From NCBI RefSeq assembly GCF_963921235.1, contig NC_086097.1, positions 62,001-126,000 of the forward strand: a stretch of 64,000 nucleotides of DNA, read 5' to 3'. This DNA comes from Mobula hypostoma. Taxonomy: Eukaryota. Of this stretch, positions 4,219 through 64,000 are shown piece by piece. Made by a program: the position numbers and the translations under genes. A model generated the notes under the pieces. The model saw only the letters and a program-made list of their open reading frames with translations. It did not search any database and was not told where the DNA came from. The number at the start of each line of letters is the position of its first letter. Position 1 is the first letter of the stretch.

Positions 4219-5086
4219 CTGCAGAGACAATCACAAAATAGACGGTGAAAGAAAAAAACTACCAGGTACTGAACATATCGAATGCAGACATAAAGACAGT
4301 CTTTACGTATATTTAAGGCAGAGGCTGATAGATTGTTGATTGGTCGGGGCATGAAGTAATACAGGGAGAAGGCAGGAAAAATTGGGGGCTGAGAGGAAAA
4401 ATGGATCAGCCACGATGAAAAGGTGAAGCAGACTCGATGGGCCAAATGGCCTAACTCTGCTGCTATATCTTCAGTCTTGATGCTCTTATGGAGATGTACA
4501 TGGCGTTTTTTCTCATATACACAGAGAGGTGGGGGCGTTTGGAAGGCACTGTCAGGGGTGGTGGTAGAGGTAAATACAATGGAGGTGTTTAAGAGGCTCT
4601 CAAAAAGGCAAATGAATGTATAGGAAATGGAAATGTATGGACACTGTGTAGGCAAAAGGGATTAGTTGTTACATATTAAATTGCTTCAACACAATATGGT
4701 GGTCAGAAGGACCTTTGCGCTGTGCTGTTCTGCAGTAGCCTTAGGCACACTGATATGCTGGTGTATAGAGTCACAGAGTGGGAGTTGAAGAAACCAAGGA
4801 CAATAAATTTCATCTTTGAAATGCTGATGTTGTGGTAACCACAGCTGGATGTCAAACAATTTACCTATGCAGGGCACCAAGATGGTGAAGAGATACAAAT
4901 AGACATTAGCCTCAAACGCTGGATACTTGACCTCCACAAGAAAAAAATCAAGTTATTCAACTCCGGGAATGAAATTTGAGAACAAAAGCTTTAAGTCAAC
5001 AGTTGCACAAAAGGATCAAGTACACAGAGATCAAAACAGTGACAGTTTTTGAAGTGACTGGATGTGATTTAGGCCACAGCACATAC

Positions 5087-5810: not shown

Positions 5811-7477
5811 ACTCATTCATAGAAACACAGAAAACCTGCAGCACAATACAGGCCCTTCAGCCCACAGAGTTATGCCGAACGTGTCCCTACCCTAGAAATT
5901 AATAGGCTTACCTATAGCCCTCTACTTTACTAAGCTCCATGTACCTATCTAAAAGTCTCTTAAAAGACCCTATCGTATTCGCCTCCACCACTATTGCCAG
6001 CAGCCCATTCCACGCACTCACCACTCTCTGAGTAAAAAGCTTACCCCTAACATCTCCTCTGTACCTACTACTCAGCACTTTAAACCTGTGCCCTCTTGTG
6101 GTAACCATTTCAGCCCTGGGAAAAAGCCTCTGACTATCCACATGATCAATGCCTCTCATCATCTTATACACCTCTATCAGGTCACCTCTCATCCTTTGTC
6201 ACTCCAAGGAGAAAAGGCCAAGTTCACTCAATCTATTCTCATAAGGCATGCTCCCAATCCAGGCAACATCCTTGTAAATCTCCTCTGCACCCTTTCTATG
6301 GCTTCCACATCCTTCCTGTAGTGAGGTGACCAGAACTGAGCACAGTACTCCAAGTGTGATCTGACCAGGGTCCTATATAGCTACAACATTAGCTCTTGGC
6401 TCATAAATTCAATTCCATGATTGATGACGGCCAATACACCGTACGCCTTCTTAACCACACAGTCAACCTGCGCAGCTGCTTTGAGCGTCCTATGGACTCG
6501 GACCCCAAGATCCCTCTGATCCTCCACACCGCCAAGAGTCTTACCATTAATACTATATTCTGCCATCATATTTCACCTACCAAAATGAACCACTTCACAC
6601 TTATCTGGGTTGAACTCCATCTGCCACTTCTCAGCCCAGTTTTACATCCTAACAATATCCTGCACACTATCCACAACAGCCTTCCACACTATCCACAACA
6701 CCTCCAACCTTTGTGTCATCAGCAAACTTACTAACCCATCCCGGCACTTCCTCATCCAGGTCATTTACAAAAATCACAAAGAGTAAGGGTCCCAGAACAG
6801 ATCCTTGAGGCACTCCACTGGTGACCGACCTCCATGCAGAATATGACCCGTCTACAACCACTCTTTTCTTTCTATAGGCAAACCAGTTCTGGATCCACAA
6901 AGCAATGTCTCCTTGGATCCCATGCCTCCTTACTTTCTCAATAAGCCTTGCATGGGGTACCTAATCAAATGCCTTGCTGAAATCCATAAACACTACATCT
7001 ACTGCTCGTCCATCATCAATGTGTTTAGTCACATCCCCAACAAATTCAATTAGACTCGTAAGGCATGACCTGCCCTTGACAAAGCCATGCTGACTACTCC
7101 TAATCATATTATACCTCTCCAAATGTTCATAAGTTCTGCTTCTCAGGATCTTCTCCAACAACTTACCAACCACTGAAATAAAACTCACTGGTCTATAATT
7201 TCCTGGGCTATCTCTACTCCCTTTCTTGAATAAAGGAATAACATCCGCAACCCTCCAATCCTCCGGAACCTCTCCCGTCCCCATTGATGATGCAAGGATC
7301 ATCACCAGAGGCTCAGCAATCTCATTCCTCACCTCCCACAGTAGCCTGGGGTATATCTCATCCAGTGCCGGCGACTTATCCAACTTGATGCTTTCCAAAA
7401 GCTCGAGCACATCCTCTTTCTTAATATCTACATGCTCAAGCTTTTCAGTCTGCTGCAAGTCATCACAACAATCACCA

Positions 7478-7699
7478 AACAACAGGAATTCTGCAGATGC
7501 TGGAAATTCAAGCAACACACATCAAAGTTGCTGGTGAATGCAGCAGGCCAAGCAGCATCTATAGGAAGAGGCGCAGTCGACGTTTCAGGCCGAGACCCTT
7601 CGTCGACTGACGAAGGGTCTCGGCCTGAAACGTCGACTGCGCCTCTTCCTATAGATGCTGCTTGGCCTGCTGCGTTCACCAGCAACTTTGATGTGTGTT
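7478..7699. mobile_element. 222-bp non-coding Penelope pLTR hairpin element
   Basis: Arms 7514-7604 and 7609-7699 with a GACT loop, plus a 36-nt one-sided tail at 7478-7513. TSD ACAACAATCACCA(A) at 7465-7478 and 7700-7713. Confidence 0.9.
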
Positions 7700-8302
7700 A
7701 CAACAATCACCAAGATCCTTTTCTATAGTGAATACTAAAGTGAAGTATTCATTAAGTACCTCTGCTATTTCCTCCGGTTCCATACATACTTTCCCACTGT
7801 CACACTTGATAGGTCCTATTCTTTCACGTCTTACCCTCTTGCTCTTCACATACTTGTAGAATGCCTTGGGGTTTTCCTTAATCCTGTCCATCAAGGCCTT
7901 CTCATGGCCCCTTCTGGCTCTCCAAATTTCCTTCTTAAGCTCCTTCCTGTTAGCCTTATGATCTTCTAGATCTCTAACATTACCTAGATCTCTGAACCTT
8001 TTGTAAGCTTTTCCTTTCTTCTTGACTAGATTTATTACAGCCTTTGTACACCATGGTTCCTGTACCCTACCATAACTTCTCTATCTCATTGGAATGTACC
8101 TATGCAGAACTCCACACAAATATCCCCTGAATATTTGCCACATTTCTTCCCTACTTATCCCTGAGAACGTCTGTTTCCAATTTAAGCTTCCAATTTCCTG
8201 CATGATAGCCTCATAATTCCCCTCACTCCAATTAAGCACTTTTCTAACTTGTCTGTTCTTATCTCTCTCCAATGCTATTGTAAAGGAGATAGAATTATGA
8301 TC

Positions 8303-25931: not shown

Positions 25932-25967
25932 AGTTGACGTTTCGGGCCGAGACCCTTCGTCAGGACT
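25932..25967 (-). ncRNA. Minimal hammerhead ribozyme motif (one stem I mismatch)
   Basis: Minus strand AGTC-CTGACGA-agggtctcggccc-GAAA-CG-TC-AACT. Confidence 0.6.
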
Positions 25968-27609: not shown

Positions 27610-27645
27610 AGTCCTGACGAAGGGTCTCAGCCCGAAACGTCGACT
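27610..27645 (+). ncRNA. Minimal type I hammerhead ribozyme motif
   Basis: AGTC-CTGACGA-aGGGtctcagCCC-GAAA-CG-TC-GACT. Confidence 0.7.
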
Positions 27646-42592: not shown

Positions 42593-43648
42593 ATAGAACC
42601 ATAGAAACCACAGCACAGAAACAGGCCCTTTGGCCCTTCTTAGCTGTGCCGAACCATTTTCTGCCTAGTCCCACTGACCTGCACACAGACCATATCCCTC
42701 CAGACACCTCCCATTCATGTATCTGTCCAATTTATTCTTAAATGTTAAAAAAGAACCCGCATTTACCTCGTCTGGCAGCTCATTCCATACGCCCACCACT
42801 CTCTGTGTGAAGAAGCCCCCCCTAATGTTCCCTTTAAACTTTTCCCCCCTCACCCTTAACCGAGGTCCTCTGGTTTTTTTCTCCCCGAGCCTCAGTGGAA
42901 AAAGCCTGCTTGCATTCACTTTATCTATACCCATCACAATTTTATATACCTCTATCAGATCTCCCCTCATTCTTCTACGCTCCAGGGAATAAAGTCCTAA
43001 CCTATTCAACCTTTCTCTGTAACTGAGTTTCTCAAGTCCCGGCAACATCCTTGTAAACCTTCTCTGCACTCTTTCAACCTTATTTATATCCTTCCTGTAA
43101 TTTGGTGACCAAAACTGAACACAATACTCCAGATTCGGCCTCACCAATGCCTTATACAACCTCATCATAACATTCCAGCTCTTATACTCAATACTATGAT
43201 TAATAAAGGCCAATGTACCAAAAGCTCTCTTTACGACCCTATCTGCCTGTGACGACACTTTTAGGGAATTTTGTATCTGTATTCCCAGATCCCTCTGTTC
43301 CACTGCACTCCTCAGTGCCTTACCATTAACCCTGTATGTTCTACATTGGTTTGTCCTTCCAACGTGCAATACCTCACACTTGTCAGTATTAAACTCCATC
43401 TGCCATTTTTCAGCCCATTTTTCCAGCTGGTCCAAGTCCCTCCGCAGGCTCTGAAAACCTTCCTCACTGTCTACTACACCTCCAATCTTTGTATCATCAG
43501 CAAACTTGCTGATCCAATTTACCACATTATCATCCAGATCACTGATATAGATGACAAATAACAATGGACCCAGCAGTGATCCCTGCGGCACACCACTAGT
43601 CACAGGCCTCCACTCAGAGAAGCAATTTTCTACCACCACTCTCTGGCA
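42593..43648 (-). mobile_element. Young 5'-truncated CR1 (third family) with an open RT C-terminal half
   Basis: ORF 42665-43723 is uninterrupted from GVPQGS to the stop; GGTTCTAT tail. Confidence 0.92.
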
Positions 43649-44362
43649 CCTCTCTGATTCTATCCTTTTCCATGATAATGCTGAAGGCCAGGGAGCGGTG
43701 GTCACTGTCCCCCAGATGCTCACCCACTGAGACGTCTGTGACCTGACCCGGTTCGTTACCTAATACTAGATCTAGTATGGCATTCCCCTTAGTCGGCCTG
43801 TCGACATACTGTGACAGGTATACGTCCTGGACACACTTAATAAACTCTGCCCCATTTAAACCCTTGGAACTAATCAGGTGCCAATCAATATTAGGGAAGT
43901 TAAAGTCACCCATGATAACAACTCTTTAATTTTTGTACCTTTCCAAAATCTGCACCTCTGTATCTCTGCTGCTACCAGGGGGCCTATAGGATACTCCCAA
44001 TAAAGTAACTTCTCCCTTCCTGTTCCTGACTTCCAACCATACTGACTCAAAAGAGGATCCTGCTACATTACCCACCCTTTCTGTAGCTTTAATAGCATCC
44101 CTGTGCCACCGCTCCTGCCCTTTCCTCCCCTCTCTATCCGTTTTAAAGCACTGAAATCCAGGAATATTGAGAATCCATTCCTGCCCTGGTGCCAGCCAAG
44201 TCTCTGTCATGGCCATTACATCATAATGCCATGTCTGTATCCAATCTCTCAGTTCATCACCTTTGTTCCTGATGCTTCTTGCATTGAAGTACACACACTT
44301 TAGCCCTTCTACCTTACTACCTTTTCACCCTTTATTCTGTTTCTCTAAGCCTCTCTATATAA

Positions 44363-46338
44363 ACCATAAGACAAAGGAGCAGAAGTCGGCCATTCAACCC
44401 ATCAAGTCTGCTCCGCCATTTTATCATGAGCTGATCCATTCTCCCGTTTAGTCCCACTCCCCCACCTTCTCACCATAACCTTTGATGCCCTGGCTACTCA
44501 GATATCTATCAATCTCCGCCTTAAGTACACCCAATGACTTGGCCTCCACTGCTGCCCGTGGCAACAAATTCCATAGATTCACCACCCTCTGACTAAAAAA
44601 ATTTCTTCGCATTTCTGTTCTGAATGGGAGCTGTTCAATCCTTAAGTCATGCCCTCTTGTACTAGACTCCCCCATCATGGGAAACAACTTTGCCACATCC
44701 ACTCTATCCATTCCTTTCAACATCCAAAATGTTTCTATGAGGTCTCCCCTCATTCTTCAAAACTCCAAGGAATACAGTCCAAGAGCGGACAAACTTTCCT
44801 CATATATTAACCCTCTCATTCCCAGAATTATTCTAGTGAATCTTCTCTGTACCCTCTCCAACGTCAGCACATCCTTTCTTAAATCAGGAAACCAAAACTG
44901 CCCACAGTACTCCAAGTGAGGTCTCACCAGCGCCTTATAGAGCCTCAACATCACATCCCTGCTCCTATACTCTATTCCTCTAGAAATGAATGCCAACATT
45001 GCATTCACCTTCTTCACCACCGACTCAACCTGGAGGTTAACCTTAAGGGTATCCTGTACGAGGACTCCCAAGTCCCGTTGCATCTCAGAACTTTGAATTC
45101 TTTCCCTATTTAAATAATAGTCTGCTCGTTTATTTCTTCCGCCAAAGTGCATAACCATACACTTTCCAACATTGTATTTCATTTGCCACTTCTTTGCCCA
45201 TTCTTCCAATCTATTCAAGTCTCTCTGCAGACTCTCCGTTTCCTCAGCACTACCGGCCCCTCCACCTATCTTCGTATCATCAGCAAACTTAGCCACAAAG
45301 CCATCTATTCCATAATCCAAATCGTTGATGTACAATGTAAAAACAAGCAGCCCCAACATGGACCGCTGTGGAACACCACTGGTAACCGGCAGCCAACCAG
45401 AATAGGATACCTTTATTCCCACTCTCTGTTTCCTGCCAATCAGCCAACGCTCTATCCACGTATGTAACTTTCCCGTAATTCCATGGGCTCTTATCTTGTT
45501 AAGTAGCTTCATGTGTGGCACCTTGTCAAAGGCCTTTTGAAAATCCAAATATACAACATCCACTGCTTCTCCCTTGTCTAACCTACTTGTAATTTCCTCA
45601 AAAAATTGTAATAGGTTTGTCAGGCAGGATTTTCTTTTGAGGAATCCATACTGAGTTCTGCCTATCTTGTCATATGCCTCCAGGTACTCCATAACCTCAT
45701 CCTTGACAATCGACTCCAACAACTTCCTAACCATCGATGTCAAGCTAACAGATCTATAATTTCCTTTTTGCTTCCTTGCCCCCTTCTTAAATAGCAGAGT
45801 GGCATTTGCAATCTTCCAGTCCTCCAGAACCATGCCAGAATCTATTAACTTTTGAAAGATCATCGCTAATGCCTCTGCAATTTCCACAGCTACTTCCTTC
45901 AGAACACGAAGGTGCATTCTATCCGGTCCGGGAGATTTATCTACCTTTAGACTATTCAGCTTCCTGAGTACTTTCTCTGTCGTAATTGTGACTGCGCACA
46001 CATCTCTTCCTTGCCACCCTTGAGTGTCCAGTATACTGCTGATGTCCTCCTCAGTGAAGACTAATGCAAAATACTCGTTCAGTTCCTCCGCCATCTCATC
46101 TCCCTATCTCCCATTACAATTTCTCTAGCATCATTTTCTATCGGTCGTATATCTGCGCTCACCTGTCTTTTCCTCTTTATATACTTGAAAAAGCTTTTAG
46201 TATCCTCTTTGATATTATTTGCTAGCTTCCTTTCATAGTTAATCTTTTCCCTCTTAATGACCTTCTTAGTTTCCTTTAGGAAGCTTTTAAAAACTTCCCA
46301 ATACTCTGTCTTCCCACTAATTTTTGCTTCCTTGTATT
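44363..46338 (-). mobile_element. 5'-truncated CR1 (fourth family), 445-aa RT ORF fragment
   Basis: ORF 44757-46094 with the RT motifs; 3' end tcttatggt. Confidence 0.92.
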
Positions 46339-47231
46339 CCTTATATGTTAGATCTGGCTTTACTCCATGCACTTCTCTCACCGTTCTATTGCTCCGGGTC
46401 CCATCCCCCTTGCAAATTAGTTTAAATCCTCCCGAACCATGCTAGCAAACCTACCTGCAAGGATATTGCTCCCCCTCAAGAATATGAAGAATACTTCTTC
46501 ATATTTGAGTTGTTTCCTTACTGTGCCTTCTGAAGTTTCCCCAGAATCACCTGCCATTGCAGTTCTGCCGTCATCCCTGCAAGTGTCCCCTTCCAGTCAG
46601 TTTAGGCCAGGTCCTCTCTCATGCCTCCACTATAATACTGATACATCTGTTTTTAACCTCCTCAAAATTTCTTTAAAGTCTCCAATACCTCCTCCCTGCT
46701 AATTCACATGTGGTCCAAGACATGGGCTGAAGGCCGTTGGTGTACTGTACTTCTCTGTTGCATGAGGCTCACTGGGATCTTTCTCTCTCCATTTTTCAAA
46801 CTTTTTTCACCACAAATTTACTGCCCTCTGCCTTTCTCCTTCTCTATTCTCAGTTTACTAACGTCCTACCACTGGCAAATTCTACTGCCTCAGTATTGGC
46901 GTCAGGCTCAATGGATCCTGCAATCGACAAAATCCTTGTGAAATAGAATGGGAACTCCAAAAGGCACACATAGTTTGTGCTGCCTGTTAGTGCAAGTCAG
47001 GTTGTATTTTACTGTTTCTAACATATCTTCAGTTCACTGATGCTGGAAAAATGTTTTTTTTTTAAATTTTATTTTTATTTGGATGAGTTCACAATTATCA
47101 TGTACTTTTTTCACACATATAACCTTTTCCATTTTTTAATATGTATAAAACTACAATTATTTATACATTCAACACACATCAAAGTTGCTGGTGAATGCAG
47201 CAGGCCAAGCAGCATCTATAGGAAGAGGCGC

Positions 47232-47267
47232 AGTCGACGTTTCAGGCCGAGACCCTTCGTCAGGACT
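47232..47267 (-). ncRNA. Minimal type I hammerhead ribozyme motif (sense to the host gene)
   Basis: Exact mirror of 47303-47338. Confidence 0.75.
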
Positions 47268-47302
47268 AACTGAAGGAAGAGGGACTCCCTCTTCCTTCAG
47301 TT

Positions 47303-47338
47303 AGTCCTGACGAAGGGTCTCGGCCTGAAACGTCGACT
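47303..47338 (+). ncRNA. Minimal type I hammerhead ribozyme motif
   Basis: Stem I AGTC/GACT, core CTGACGA, stem II AGG/CCT, GAAA, palindromic ACGT in place of stem III, predicted GUC cleavage after 47334. Confidence 0.75.
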
Positions 47339-50300
47339 GCGCCTCTTCCTATAGATGCTGCTTGGCCTGCTGCGTTCACCAGCAACTTTGATGTGTGTTG
47401 CTTGAATTTCCAGCATCTGCAGAATTCCTGTTGTTATTATTTATACATTCTTAAGTACACATTGAGATGATATAAAAGCAAAATAAACATTTAAATAGAT
47501 AATTATGTACTGTGGTAAATCTAACCTATTAGGCTAAGTAATGAAATTAGTTGTTAAGAAAAATGGTAATAATAGTTTCCATACAACCCTTCTGGACCAT
47601 TTCCACTGTTCCAAAATGTTGCATACAAGCCTATATACCAACCATTGTAGGTGTTTATATCCCAATTTGTTCGTGCTTGTTCCTGCCCGCAGACATAATT
47701 ATCCAATCCCTATGTACTTATTTACTTAATTTTTTCATTTTTTTTATCCCTTTTCCAAATCTTTCCCTTTACTTGTGTTAATTCTCTATTTTCCAAAAAA
47801 AACAAACATTTAGACTAGGGGTGCTTACGTTAGCAATATTACTGTGTTGATGAGAAGAGCAATATAAATCATTAGGAGAGTCATCTAAAGTCTGCTCGCA
47901 TTGGGGTTATATATTCAATCCATTTATTCCAGATTTGATAAAATGTTTCTTTTTGAGTTCTCAGGGAGTAGGTCAACTTTTCCATTTTAAATATTTCCAA
48001 GATAATTTCGTACCAATCTTCTAATGTAGGTGGTATGGGATTTAGCCATTTTCTAGTGATTGATTTCTTACTTGCCGCTAAGAGGGCCTGCAGCAACTTT
48101 ATGTCTTCCTTCTGTTCAAGGAACAATACATGCCCCAAATAGAGCGTCTCAAAGTTCAGAGGTATCTGGGACCTAAGTACCTTAACTAATGTTCTATGAA
48201 TACCTTCTCAAAATAGACTTAATTTAGGGCAATCCCAGAAAATATGAAAATGATTTGCCTCCTTGGAGCCGCACCTTCTCCAACACATCACATTTGTATC
48301 TTTATATTTTTCCTGATATGGGGTCTTGAAGTATCTTATAATGTTTTTCCAACAATGTTCTCTCCAAGTCAAAGAATTAGTCGAGGACCATTGAAAGCTG
48401 CAGATTTTCCCCCAAGCCTCCTCTGAAAGTACCAACCCCGCTTCTTTCTCCCACTTCTCTTTAATGTACAGTGTATTTACATTTTTAGCATGGGAGAGTG
48501 AATTATATAGGCGAGAAACTGATTTACTAGGTATTGAACTGCAAGCCGAATTCAGAATCTTGAAAAATTCTAATTCTACTGTTGATAGGTCTGTATATCT
48601 ACAACTCTGGTTAACATAGTTTCGTATTTGAAGGTACCCAAAAAAGTCATTATGTTCTAGGCCATGTTTGTCCTGCAGGATTTGGAAACTTTGTAATACT
48701 CTTTTATCTATAAATGAGAGGTAGGTTGTAAGACCTTTCTTTATCCATAGCTCAAATCTTTTATCTCCTCTGTTGGGAAGGAATTCGGTATCATATGCAC
48801 ACCATCTAAAGAGTTTTAGCATGTTATTAATTCCACATGAATTAACCACCTTCTGCCATACTTTTAATGTAAGATTTATCCAAGCATTATTAAATTTTTC
48901 CAACTGGGCCATCAATCCTTTGTCAGCTATTGAGGCCTGAAGAGGAAAACTGTCAACTAATCCAAATTCTATTTCCTTCCATCTAGCCTTATATTCCCTA
49001 TTACACCAATATAACAGAGGGGTTATCTGTGAGGCATAAAAATAATTTCTCAGGCAAGGAAGAACCATACCTCCTCTTTCCTTCCCTAACTGTAAGGTGT
49101 TATATCGAATTCTAGGTTTCCTTCCTTGCCAAATGAAGCGGGAAATCCATTTGTCCCATTCCCTGAATTGATTATCATCCACCTCCACTGGTAAAGTACG
49201 GAAAAGATATAATAACCGAGGAAGAATATTCATTTTTATAGTATTTATCCTTGAATTTAAACTTAAAAAGGGGATAAGATTCCATCTATGCATATCTGCT
49301 TTTATCTCTGAGATCAATGGCCCATAATTTACCTGTGACAGTGTTGAAAGATCCTTCGGCAGGGTTATTCCTAAATATTTTAATGATTTAGCTTCCCACT
49401 TAAGATCGTATGTATCCTGCAATTTTTTGGATGGTGTATAATTTAGGGACATAACCTGCGTTTTCTTTACATTTATTTTATAACCTGATATTTTCCCAAA
49501 GTCATCCAACAGTGTAAACAATCCTATAAATGATTTTTCTGGTTCACTCAGATAGACCAAAACATCATCTGCGAATAACGCCACTTTCTGTTCAATCCCT
49601 GCCACCTTGATACCTTTTACGATTTCGCTCTGTCTTATTAGTTGGGCAAGTGGTTCAATATATAGCGCAAAAAGGAGAGGAGAAATTGGGCATCCCTGTC
49701 TAGTGCCTCTCTCTAAAATGAAGGAGTCAGAGAGGTCCCCATTTATCTTAATTCGGGCTGTTGGGCTGTCATACAGAGTCTGAATTACTTTAATAAACCT
49801 TTCTTGAAAGCCGAATCTTCCTAACACTCTGTATAGGAATGCCCAACTAACCGAATCAAAAGCTTTCTCAGCGTCCAATCCTACTACCATTGTCTCTGTC
49901 TCGTTCTTATTAACCTGTTCTAATATGTGCAGAGTTCTCCTTATGTTGTCCTGTGTTTGTCTTTGTTGAATAAATCCAGTCTGGTCTAAATGGATTAGGC
50001 CAGGTAAAAGCTTTTCCAATCTGCGCGCTAATATAGATGTAAATAGTTTGTAATCTAAATTAAGAACACTAATTGGCCGATAATTGCCACATTCTAGTTT
50101 ATCTTTACCCTCTTTCGGAATAACTGAAATAATCGCTTCTCTCCAGGAAGGTGGAGTTTCTCCTCTCTGCAAGATCCAATTAAAGGTGTTAAGTAGTAAT
50201 GGGGCTAACTGTGTCTTCAGGGACTTGTACCACTCTGAGGTAAACCCATCAGAACCCGGGGACTTTCCAGCCTTTAACCTAGAGATGGCCACGTTCAGTT

Positions 50301-52012
50301 CTTTGACAGTTACTGGTTCTAATAAACTTTCATTTTGTAAATCTGTAAGTTTAGGTAGATCTAAAAAATTCAATACACTGTCTATATAGGGCTCATTGGG
50401 GGCCCGGGGTTGGGAGTACAGCTCTCGATAATACGTTTCAAAACTCTCTTGAATTTTCCCTATTGTACTCTCCACAAGCTTTGTCTTTGGATTCTTTATT
50501 TTATGAATTGTATTGTCTGCTTGTTGTTTTCGTAATTTATATGCTAATAATCTAGCTGATTTACCTCCTACTTCATAATTCTTTTGTCTCAGGTAAAGAA
50601 AATTTCTTTGAGTTTCCAACGTATAAATATCATCAATTTCACTTTGCAATTTCCTAATTTCCTGTTTTCGATTTGAATTACTTTTGTTGCTATCTCCAAC
50701 TTGAAGTTGTTTTAATTTTCCTTGAAGGTCTGCTAATTTTTGTGCATTGATTTTTTTCATGTGAGTAGTAATGGAAATAATTTTCCCTCTCAGTACAGCT
50801 TTCAATGTATCCCATAAAATCACTGGCGATGTTTCTCCCGTGTCATTAAGGTCTAGATATTCTTTGATTTCTCCCCTTAATCTCTCCATTACTTTTGGGT
50901 TATTAAGTATATGTGAGTTTAGCCTCCATAGTGTTTTCCTCATTTTCCTTTCCAGGATTAGAGACATAGAGACTGGGCTATGATCCGACAGATCAATTGT
51001 TGCAATATTACAGTTTTTTATCCTGAGTCTATCTGTATTAAAGATAAAGAAATAGTCTATCCTTGAATAGGCTGAATGAGGGAAAGAGTAATATGTATAA
51101 TCTTTACTAGTAGGGTGTAATTCCCTCCAGACATCTATAATTCCCAACTCCTCCATCAATGAATTCACTTTCCGAGTCAGAGGTTTATTCTGAGTAACTA
51201 TTCTTGAAGAATCTAATATAGGATTTAATCTAATATTAAAATCTCCTCCACAAATTACTACCCCTCGAGAACTGACCATTAGGTCAAAAATGTGTCTATA
51301 AAATGACCATTCACTACCTGGAGGAGCATAAACATTCAGCAATGTTATTTCTGTACCTTCTATTCTTCCTGTGATTTTTACAAACCGTCCTTCTTTGTCT
51401 CTAGTCTCTGAAATATGTTCATAATTAAGAGTACTTGATATTAAAGTAGCTACCCCTCTTTTGTGACTCAATTTATATGATGAATAAAATACATGCTTAA
51501 AGCCCATTCTTTTTAGTTTTCCATGTTCAGATTGGCTGGAAAAATGGTTTTTATATAGATTCTCCTCCAGAGACTGGACACATGCAACATATGGAGAGCA
51601 CAGACAGATGATGGGATCATGGGCAGCACCTCTGCCTCACTGAATCTAAAGGCAAGAAATAAATTTTGTGCTTCTTGCATGCTCCCAAAACATTTGAGCC
51701 AAAAGATTTCTGCTGTAGATGAAATGGACTAAGTCCAAGTCTGGTCCTCTCACAGGCCACAACCTCTTTGAGCAACACTAAAGAACTGAAGGAACTCAGC
51801 ACTGATGGAGGAAAATCATAGTTGAAATTTCCAGTCGAGACCCTTTCTCCAGATTCCAACCAGAAACTTCGATTGTCCTGAGCTCTTCCAGCATTTTCTA
51901 TGTTGTTACTGATCTAACATCATCAGCTCGTGTGCCTGACCAAGCTGCTGTAGTCACTGTGGAAACAGGTGTATTGGTTTCTCACTTGTTGTGTTTTGGA
52001 TAGTGTTATTAC

Positions 52013-62367: not shown

Positions 62368-64000
62368 ACATAGAAAACATAGAAACGTAGAAAATAGGTG
62401 CAGGAGTAGGCCATTCGGCCCTTCAAGCCTCAACCGCCATTCAGTATGATCATGGCTGATCATCCAACTCAAACCCTGTACCAGCCTTCCCTCCATACCC
62501 CCTGATCCCTTTAGCCACAAGGGCCATATCTAACTCCCTCTTAAATGTAGCCAATGAACTGGCCTCAACTGTTTCCTGTGGCAGAGAATTCCACAGATTC
62601 ACCACTCTCTGTGTGAAGAAGTTTTTCCTAATCTCAGTCCTAAAAGGCATCCCCTTTATCCTCAAAATGTGACGCCTCGTTCTGGACTTCCCCAACATCG
62701 GGAACAATCTTGCTGCATCTAGCCTGTCCGATCCCTTTAGGATTTTATATGTTTCAATCAGATCCCCCCTCAATCTTCTAAATTCCAACGAGTATAAGCC
62801 TAGTTCATCCAGTCTTTCATCATATGAAAGTCCTGCCGTCCCAGGAATCAATCTGGTGAACCTTCTTTGTACTCCCTCTGAGTCTTTCCTCAGATTAGGG
62901 GACCAAAACTGCATACAATACTCCAGGTGTGGTCTCACCAAGGCCATGTACAACTGCAGTAGTACCTCCCTGCTCCTGTACTCGAATCCTCTTGCTATAA
63001 ATGCCAGCATACCATTCGCCTTTTTCACCGCCTGCTGTACCTGCATGCCCACTTTCAATGACTGGTGTATAATGACACCCAGGTCTCGTTGCACCTCCCC
63101 TTTTCCTAATCGGCCACCATTCAGATGATAATCTGTTTTCCTGTTTTTGCCACCAAAGTGGATAACTTCACATTTATCCACATTAAATTGCATCTGCCAT
63201 GAATTTGCCCACTCACCTAATCTATCCAAGTCACCCTGCATCCTCTCAGCATCCTCCTCACAGCTAACAGTGCCGCCCAGCTTCGTGTCATCCGCAAACT
63301 TGGAGATGCAGCATTTAATTCCCTCATCCAAGTCATTAATATATATTGTAAAGAACTAGGGTCCTAGCAATGAGCCTTGCAGTACCCCACTAGTCACTGC
63401 CTGCCATTCTGAAAAGGTCCCGTTTATTCTCACTCTTTGCTTCCTGTCTGCCAACCAATTCTCTATCCACATCAATACCTTACCCCCAATACCGTGTGCT
63501 TTAAATTTGCACACTAATCTCCTGTGTGGGACCTTGTCAAAAGCCTTTTGAAAATCCAAATATACCACATCCACTGGTTCTCCCCTATCGACTCTACTAG
63601 TTACATCCTCAAAAAATTCTGAGGTTCGTCAGACATGATTTTCCTTTCACAAATCCATGCTGACTTTGTCCGATGATTTCACCGCTTTCCAAATGAGCTG
63701 ATATCACATCTTTGATAACTGACTCTAGCAGTTTCCCCACCACCGATGTTAGGCTAACCGGTCTATAATTCCCTGGTAAGCATAATTCTATGCTTCCTTC
63801 AGTTTGTCCTGACGAAGGGTCTCGGCCTGAAACGTCGACTGCGCCTCTTCCTATAGATGCTGCTTGGCCTGCTGCGTTCACCAGCAACTTTGATGTATGT
63901 TGCTTGAATTTCCAGCATCTGCAGAATTCCTGTTGTTTGCCTATAATTCCCTGGTTTCTCTCTCCCTCCTTTTTTAAAAAGCGGGGTTACATTAGCCACC
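62368..64000 (-). mobile_element. Young CR1 (family of 8303-10648), running off the window
   Basis: ORFs 62450-63331 and 63356-63574; (CATAGAAA)n tail. Confidence 0.93.
63778..63940 (+). mobile_element. 163-bp Penelope pLTR mini-insertion with a hammerhead motif (63805-63840)
   Basis: Same subfamily as 47286-47435. TSD CTATAATTCCCTGGT at 63763-63777 and 63941-63955. Confidence 0.9.

Follow-up and report, generated by a model that had tools for sequence, protein, structure and literature searches.

The 64,000-nucleotide stretch of the Mobula hypostoma genome analysed here (contig NC_086097.1 of assembly GCF_963921235.1, positions 62,001 to 126,000 of the forward strand; hereafter the window, whose own numbering is used for coordinates) contains at 47171-47435 a short insertion that is almost entirely palindromic and carries a hammerhead ribozyme motif on each strand. 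An initial annotation, made from the letters alone, described it as a tiny palindromic retroelement and left two options for its origin: an abortive fold-back product of an active Neptune-type Penelope-like element (PLE), or a unit resembling a retrozyme or a miniature inverted-repeat transposable element (MITE) that is mobilised in trans. The locus raises the question of whether such a palindrome is an element in its own right or a by-product of the integration of another one. Our analysis favours the latter: very probably, an active PLE of the Neptune/Nematis type with a very high copy number left this insertion behind as a single integration product that was dead on arrival.

The palindrome is a true insertion with a single tail

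The insertion is 265 bp long and is flanked by a perfect direct repeat (15/15 positions identical), the 15-bp word ATTATTTATACATTC, which a direct-repeat search placed at 47156-47170 on the left and 47436-47450 on the right. Two other copies of the host repeat (L082 and L083) run uninterrupted through the site and, because they hold a single ATTATTTATACATTC at this empty site, we regard the block as a true insertion with a target-site duplication (TSD). For its interior we use a scale on which q1-q150 equals window positions 47286-47435 and so covers the right arm together with the tail. The inverted arm, which has no tail, occupies 47171-47284 on the minus strand and runs from q115 to q1. It is followed by the palindrome centre, one unpaired base at 47285 where the junction is ambiguous by about 1-3 nt, then by the direct arm at 47286-47399 (plus strand, q1-q114), and finally by a one-sided 36-nt tail at 47400-47435 (plus strand, q115-q150). 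The inverted repeat as detected spans 47163-47284 and 47286-47407; the insert's own arms are 114 bp each and 99.1% identical, and differ at one of 115 positions, a CpG transition.

The insert has no open reading frame (ORF), and neither of its ends carries poly(A) or the 3' tail of a long interspersed nuclear element (LINE). Its predicted RNA fold is a single hairpin of -247.3 kcal/mol (z = -32), a stability that none of 200 shuffled sequences reached. The repeat analysis thus agrees with the initial annotation on the anatomy of the locus, namely a TSD-flanked, near-perfect palindrome of 265 bp with 114-bp arms, a 36-nt tail and no ORF. Among the Rfam models that match the palindrome are four microRNA precursors (mir-515, mir-3158, mir-3127 and mir-874; window 47240-47331) with scores of 42-50 bits, below gathering; we rejected a microRNA identity and regard these matches as hairpin artefacts. 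Palindromes of this kind may prompt false microRNA-like or 'novel foldback element' calls, and annotators should treat them with caution.

The arms and tail are the end of a Penelope-like element

A search of the 3.48-Gb assembly (200 contigs) with q1-150 gave 248 candidates, 40 of which were scored. The copies are 97-100% identical, and some extend upstream into a longer element. One locus (L061) holds a 3.63-kb unit that opens with q11-150 and closes with q4-150, which corresponds to a pseudo-long terminal repeat (pLTR) of about 141 bp; the sequence of the direct arm thereby forms both ends of the full unit, and an inverted arm (q4-114) adjoins the unit's 5' end. At a second locus (L060), a 5'-truncated copy reads via q4-150 into another unit, giving a partial tandem. 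Together, the arm and tail of the insert are the pLTR end of this parent PLE, namely its final 150 nt or so.

The L060 copy contains a 1038-residue open frame with RVT_1 at residues 534-696 (E = 4e-5) and GIY-YIG at residues 941-1016 (E = 6e-4), and the ESM-Atlas clusters closest to the parent frame are animal proteins combining RVT_1 and GIY-YIG (score 0.98). A CX4CxxC linker, CKRNKCYTC, lies just upstream of GIY-YIG in L061 and in a further copy (L031), and is absent from the L060 copy. In Craig et al. (2021, PMC8557442), a reverse transcriptase (RT) with a C-terminal GIY-YIG endonuclease (EN), pLTRs and partial tandems form the defining set for EN-positive PLEs, and a Zn-finger-like CX2-5CxxC linker between RT and EN marks the Neptune and Nematis clades. 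Judged by its predicted RT and GIY-YIG domains, its pLTRs and its partial tandems, the parent of the insert is a young, very abundant EN-positive PLE.

The family is exceptionally large as well as young. A 34-nt block of the pLTR that contains the hammerhead motif has 18,902 + 18,931 = 37,833 exact matches in the assembly, compared with 0 for a reversed control, and a looser hammerhead core pattern has 209,416 matches versus 35,424 for its reversed control. In round figures, the block is present in some 38,000 exact copies, and minimal hammerhead cores exceed the control by roughly 174,000. Contigs from three organisms, aligned to L060:4150-4550, also carry the family at high depth, with opposite-strand joints at many positions; neither the family nor its fold-back products are therefore confined to one assembly.

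Head-to-head double copies are a common product of the family

We sampled the architecture of the family by position, taking the first 20 places after the insert locus on contig C1. Thirteen of these copies extend more than 100 nt upstream, three are short simple copies (5' ends at q-26, q17 and q18), and four are head-to-head fold-backs; of the 16 copies that are not fold-backs, ten are tailed, five are tail-less and one is unclear. When the first 100 places listed were examined for strand pairs within 1 kb, eight were in (-,+) order versus 0.33 expected, with a maximum of three in 2000 random trials, while (+,-) pairs numbered 0 and (+,+) pairs 1. Extremely 5'-truncated, head-to-head double copies are a common product of this PLE family, as counted from these 20 sampled copies and 100 listed places.

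Sixteen fold-backs were dissected, comprising the insert locus, ten from the homology-search set, four from the position-based sample, and a second fold-back of the window at 7479-7699. Exactly one arm carries a tail in all 16. In each of them the outer end of one arm falls at q106-120 (mostly 114-118) and the other arm enters the tail, to q147-164; one tailed arm reaches at least q135, the end of the retrieved stretch. A TSD is readable in 15 of the 16 and measures 10-16 bp, mostly 14-15 bp. None of the 16 ends in an A-tract or a LINE 3' end. The inner junctions, by comparison, are all different: they include q1/q-1 at the insert (47285), q22/q24 at 7479-7699, q30/q4, q60/q4, q13/q51, q18/q76 and q9/q10, and at one locus (L010) q15 is joined to a point 630 nt upstream. 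The ends, the duplications and the single tail can be read directly from these copies, as can the likeness of their arms. Over q20-106, the two arms of a fold-back mismatch at 12 of 1251 positions, versus 449 of 18,838 between loci, and none of 5000 re-pairings gave 12 mismatches or fewer (minimum 15). Because arms differ less within than between fold-backs, the two arms of an event share a source: either a single template or a single source locus gave rise to both, or one arm served as the template for the other. At the insert, the two arms agree at the family's polymorphic sites and have the same rare C at q3.

The initial annotation had proposed that copies be clustered by the sequence at the palindrome centre. 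When the 31-nt centre of the insert was searched for with its middle base left free, its sole match in the 3.48-Gb assembly was the insert locus itself. Since this centre is unique, the hairpin form has never been re-copied; by the standard set in the initial annotation, the result rules out a family of hairpins that propagate themselves and favours integration products that each arose once. The name given to the locus, a tiny palindromic retroelement, has to be withdrawn accordingly, as this is the pLTR end of a PLE whose hairpin never propagated.

Throughout the family, 3' ends fall into two classes, one tail-less at q106-120 and one tailed at q147-164. By arm alignment, the outer end of the insert's inverted arm, on the 47171 side (minus strand), sits at the proximal, tail-less start site, and the 36-nt tail of its direct arm is the stretch between the two classes. 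A short direct repeat is found at both of them, as TGTTGCTT at q111-118 (47396-47403) and TGTTGTTT at q144-151 (47429-47436); in L060 the region lies at 4378-4420. A hairpin in the tail was considered as the cause of the two start sites and rejected, as the fold of L060:4368-4432 has z = -0.94 and 31 of 200 shuffles fold as well.

At the 5' side, 23 of the 30 best-scoring copies of the homology-search set start at q1-4, and in many of them 1-4 additional bases (C, CC, TC or GTGC) precede this point. This excess could have indicated a discrete 148-nt solo-pLTR RNA with a hot spot at q1-3, an idea that we discarded when none of the 20 position-sampled copies was found to start at q1-4. The excess is probably a matter of ascertainment, because the search skips very common words and was keyed on a rare word with C at q3, and we regard it as probably a search artefact with a residual part not fully explained. 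A search with q4-114 alone triggered no matches.

In very short fold-backs, both 3'-end classes and the junction fit into about 250 bp, and such copies therefore serve well as natural records of how PLEs integrate: one tail per event, arms of the same source, and cuts staggered by 10-16 bp.

Rival origins and a proposed mechanism

Could the palindrome have been made in another way? The 15-bp TSD and the AT-rich target would suit target-primed reverse transcription by a LINE, and intact-looking LINE ORF2 frames are present; a PLE-derived RNA might accordingly have been inserted in trans by LINE machinery, with an inversion of the L1 twin-priming kind. In L1 twin priming both target strands prime and leave an inverted 5' segment inside one TSD, as in the insert. 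The classical process, however, inverts a different, upstream part of the same RNA, rather than a duplicate of the same one, and keeps the poly(A) end. The insert instead holds the same segment twice, neither of its ends has poly(A) or a LINE 3' tail, and both outer ends lie at the PLE family's own two 3'-end classes, so that we consider LINE insertion in trans very unlikely. A simple 150-bp PLE insert might also have become palindromic later, through inverted duplication at the DNA level by replication fork switching or repair. Repair can yield palindromes, and the two arms are nearly identical. Against this, the TSD encloses the whole 265 bp and the empty sites hold a clean single target, the same head-to-head architecture recurs in about a fifth of copies, and the outer end of the second arm always falls at the family's tail-less class, q106-120, which is not expected of random duplication; we regard later duplication as extremely improbable.

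The second option of the initial annotation was a non-autonomous hairpin family, MITE- or retrozyme-like, that would be transcribed, perhaps processed by its hammerheads, and reinserted in trans by PLE protein. The insert is indeed short, TSD-flanked and devoid of an ORF, it bears ribozyme motifs, and a 2026 preprint makes the case that PLE pLTRs gave rise to animal non-LTR retrozymes (10.64898/2026.07.22.740005). We nevertheless hold this to be the least probable of the origins considered. The 31-nt centre occurs at the insert locus only, the 16 fold-backs differ in their centres and arm lengths, retrozymes form head-to-tail tandems whereas the insert is head-to-head, and its transcript would be a hairpin of -247 kcal/mol. 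The insert was rejected as a non-LTR retrozyme on the ground that its two units stand head-to-head with no head-to-tail tandem, and as a member of a MITE-like or foldback family on the ground that its centre is unique in 3.48 Gb and junctions differ in 16 of 16 fold-backs.

The PLE parent, the one-sided tail and the unique centre bear out the other option, an abortive fold-back of an active Neptune-type element. How such a product might arise is suggested by the Poseidon element of Anolis carolinensis (PAc), whose purified protein cleaves and extends both strands of its target with a preference for AT-rich sites (Frangieh et al. 2024, PMC11167929). Reverse transcription by PAc starts at two adjacent internal RNA sites, and the tail is the stretch between them (PMC11167929). 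By analogy with these in vitro results, the PLE endonuclease would have nicked an AT-rich site on its two strands, with the nicks separated by 15 bp. Each nicked strand would then have offered a 3'-OH to prime a cDNA. On one strand synthesis would have begun at the distal site, where the tail ends (q150-156), and on the other at the proximal site, which lies some 35 nt further upstream (q114-118), and both cDNAs would have been abandoned near q1. Head-to-head joining, through template switching from one cDNA to the other or through snap-back of a single cDNA, would leave a palindrome with one tail. We infer the two-strand priming and the mode of cDNA joining from the published in vitro work on PAc. 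Near-symmetrical junctions, as seen in many fold-backs, would fit snap-back, and clearly asymmetrical ones would fit the joining of two cDNAs; snap-back as the sole mechanism was rejected in view of the asymmetrical junctions q30/q4, q60/q4, q13/q51 and q18/q76 and of L010, where q15 is joined to a point 630 nt upstream.

Several points weigh against the reading of the insert as a Neptune/Nematis-type integration product formed in this way. The Pfam scores of the L060 frame are under gathering (RVT_1, 23.8 versus 29.6 bits; GIY-YIG, 20.4 versus 22.6 bits), and no relative of the parent frame turned up when the PDB was searched by sequence. The Neptune/Nematis-type assignment is a tentative one drawn from the linker motif only. 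Two-strand priming was described for a Poseidon-clade element from a different species and can be proposed here by analogy, and PAc has no strand preference in vitro, so the strict one-tail rule is not predicted (PMC11167929). The data fit both the joining of two cDNAs and snap-back. Finally, a search that responded only to a rare word supplied 11 of the 16 fold-backs, and the positions of their inner junctions are those of an ascertained sample.

The one-tail rule and the common source of the arms could also be taken further. A PLE complex, perhaps a dimer, may copy one RNA from its two start sites, one for each nicked strand, in which case the fold-back would be the primary, symmetrical product of integration and not an accident. 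We put this forward as a speculation that is more probably wrong than right; if it were true, these tiny palindromes would be natural snapshots of a symmetrical integration intermediate. It is likewise a possibility that thousands of perfect hairpins, when transcribed, feed small-RNA silencing of the 38,000-copy family.

The hammerhead motifs are those of the parent pLTR

The two hammerhead motifs of the insert are the parent's pLTR motif doubled by inversion. The core pattern CTGANGAN{8,22}GAAANNTH matches the insert at 47307-47334 (plus strand) and 47236-47263 (minus strand). The minimal motif of the plus strand spans 47303-47339, with helix I formed by 47302/3-47306 and 47335-47339, the CUGACGA box at 47307-47313, helix II and its loop at 47314-47326, GAAA at 47327-47330, the C-G of positions 15.2-16.2 at 47331-47332 and U-C at 47333-47334, after which the cut is predicted (after 47334). 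Its minus-strand counterpart spans 47231-47267, and its predicted cut follows the C at 47236 on that strand. As ACGU within GAAA-CG-UC is self-complementary, positions 15.2-16.2 are palindromic, and there is no helix III loop.

The initial annotation read each arm as AGTC-CTGACGA-...-GAAA-CG-TC-GACT, with the GTC of the cut at 47332-47334, and this part of its description stands; the register that it gave to helix II does not, as folding favours another. In the helix II preferred by ViennaRNA, A29 is bulged, G30.U41, G31-C40, G32-C39 and U33.G38 pair, and CUCG forms the loop. A hammerhead-compatible fold of q1-118 lies 2.0 kcal/mol over the minimum in this register versus 4.5 kcal/mol over it in the earlier one. 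The A29-bulged register provides the unpaired base after A9 and makes the 10.1-11.1 pair G.U; helix I then has five pairs, including one U.G, and helix II four.

A search with the Rfam hammerhead models, of which the initial annotation had put forward type I as a check, gave no match at E <= 10 for type I, II, III, HH9 or HH10, whether the query was the insert with its surroundings (601 nt) or one arm by itself, and a scan of the whole window with Rfam gave no gathering-level match. Variation among copies bears on helix II. By hand count, C at q41, which makes the 10.1-11.1 pair G-C, occurs in 27 of about 84 homologous cores listed, and it accounts for 16-45% of the depth at q41 in contigs of uncertain kind from four runs. 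Helix II variants among the cores listed include one compensatory A32-U39 pair, three U33-A38 pairs and several uncompensated changes; the last are as expected, because these copies are decayed. The CA and TG variants at positions 15.2-16.2 of older copies look like CpG decay.

In the contigs of the four runs, sites that vary at a level of at least 10% number 1 of 36 inside the hammerhead block versus 10 of 114 in the rest of the pLTR, too few for significance. Many contig records of the four runs align over q18-q54 only, with loose ends exactly at the borders of the motif, although such cut-offs depend on the aligner. The pattern suggests that the hammerhead block is the best-conserved part among diverged families. 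Taken by its sequence, the motif fits the published minimal hammerhead ribozymes (min-HHRs) of PLEs in part, and ribozyme activity is a prediction. A transcript of this particular copy would, according to the folding model, form a 114-bp hairpin that would outcompete any ribozyme fold.

Comparison with known systems

Craig et al. (2021, PMC8557442) describe heavy 5' truncation as a feature of PLE insertions, along with a tail of 30-40 bp that often occurs at one end only. The insert resembles the EN-positive units described there in its inverted, 5'-truncated copy abutting a direct copy, in its heavy 5' truncation and in its one-end tail of 32-36 nt, and its parent resembles theirs in the RT with C-terminal GIY-YIG, the partial tandems and the hammerhead motif of the pLTR. 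It differs from them in scale only, as both of its copies are cut within the pLTR, at 114 and 150 nt, and the palindrome is near-perfect because the two arms happen to terminate at nearly the same position. The insert is to this extent a textbook by-product of PLE integration that carries the known pLTR motif of its family.

Min-HHRs have been described in the pLTRs of metazoan PLEs, with dual motifs 100-700 bp apart on opposite strands (Cervera and De la Pena 2014, PMC4209133). The motif of the insert shares with them the type I topology, the CUGANGA, GAAA and UH boxes, the lack of a helix III loop and the palindromic 15.2-16.2 (ACGU), along with the pLTR location, a very high copy number and a short helix I (4-5 bp); in the predicted A29-bulged register, it would also have their unpaired base following A9. 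Its helix II, by contrast, has 4 bp rather than the typical 6-8 bp, and its 10.1-11.1 pair is G.U, whereas related copies have G-C. The PLE hammerheads in the literature either show weak cleavage by themselves or depend on protein of the element, and they are dispensable for insertion in vitro (PMC4209133, PMC11167929).

With PAc (PMC11167929) the insert shares an AT-rich target and a structure consistent with extension on both strands, and here too the hammerhead is not needed to explain insertion. The clade (a Neptune/Nematis-type linker) and the host are different, and the genomic fold-backs are strictly one-tailed, whereas PAc has no strand preference in vitro. Animal non-LTR retrozymes, as presented by Li et al. 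(2026, 10.64898/2026.07.22.740005), are similarly non-coding, pLTR-related and equipped with a type I hammerhead; unlike the insert, a single head-to-head pair with a unique junction, they form head-to-tail tandems thought to give circular RNAs.

As a separate observation, some copies of the family have TGTATG at q106-111 (L060:4374-4379), where an in-frame ATG opens the 1038-residue RT-EN frame inside the pLTR, just before the tail; the window copy reads TGTGTG at q106-111. About 150 nt thereby accommodate the hammerhead motif, both RT start sites and the beginning of the ORF, much like the arrangement in PAc.

Other copies in the window and the host LINE

Within the window, the core pattern has seven matches versus 0.82 expected, a number reached by none of 100 shuffles. 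They lie at 2949, 7607, 25936 (minus strand), 27614, 47236 (minus strand), 47307 and 63809, and all seven are homologous variants. The match at 7607 belongs to the second fold-back, a 221-bp insert at 7479-7699 flanked by a 14-bp TSD, ACAACAATCACCAA, the whole region spanning 7465-7713. Its tail is on the left, inverted arm, and its centre (q22-24) falls inside the CUGACGA box, so that helix I is kept by neither arm. A simple, 5'-truncated pLTR copy (q6-q153) with a tail and a TSD lies at 63793-63940. Older pLTR variants are represented by the core matches at 2949-2976, 25936-25963 (minus strand) and 27614-27641; in the set made up of these variants and 63793-63940, two of the three older ones have C at q41, with G-C closing helix II.

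The palindrome itself lies in a LINE at 47045-51636 on the minus strand, which carries an APE and RT ORF2 frame of 1142 residues at 48208-51636 (minus strand; Pfam RVT_1, 153 bits; Exo_endo_phos, 25.8 bits). The A-rich 3' end of this LINE is near 47045-47054, about 120 bp from the insert. Because other copies are 98-99% identical, the host is, as estimated from this identity, a young LINE, which upholds the placement of the palindrome within a young retroelement in the initial annotation. Further RT-bearing fragments lie downstream of the host ORF2 at 44757-46103 and 42665-43759, both on the minus strand, and the region around the insert is a nest of young retroelements.

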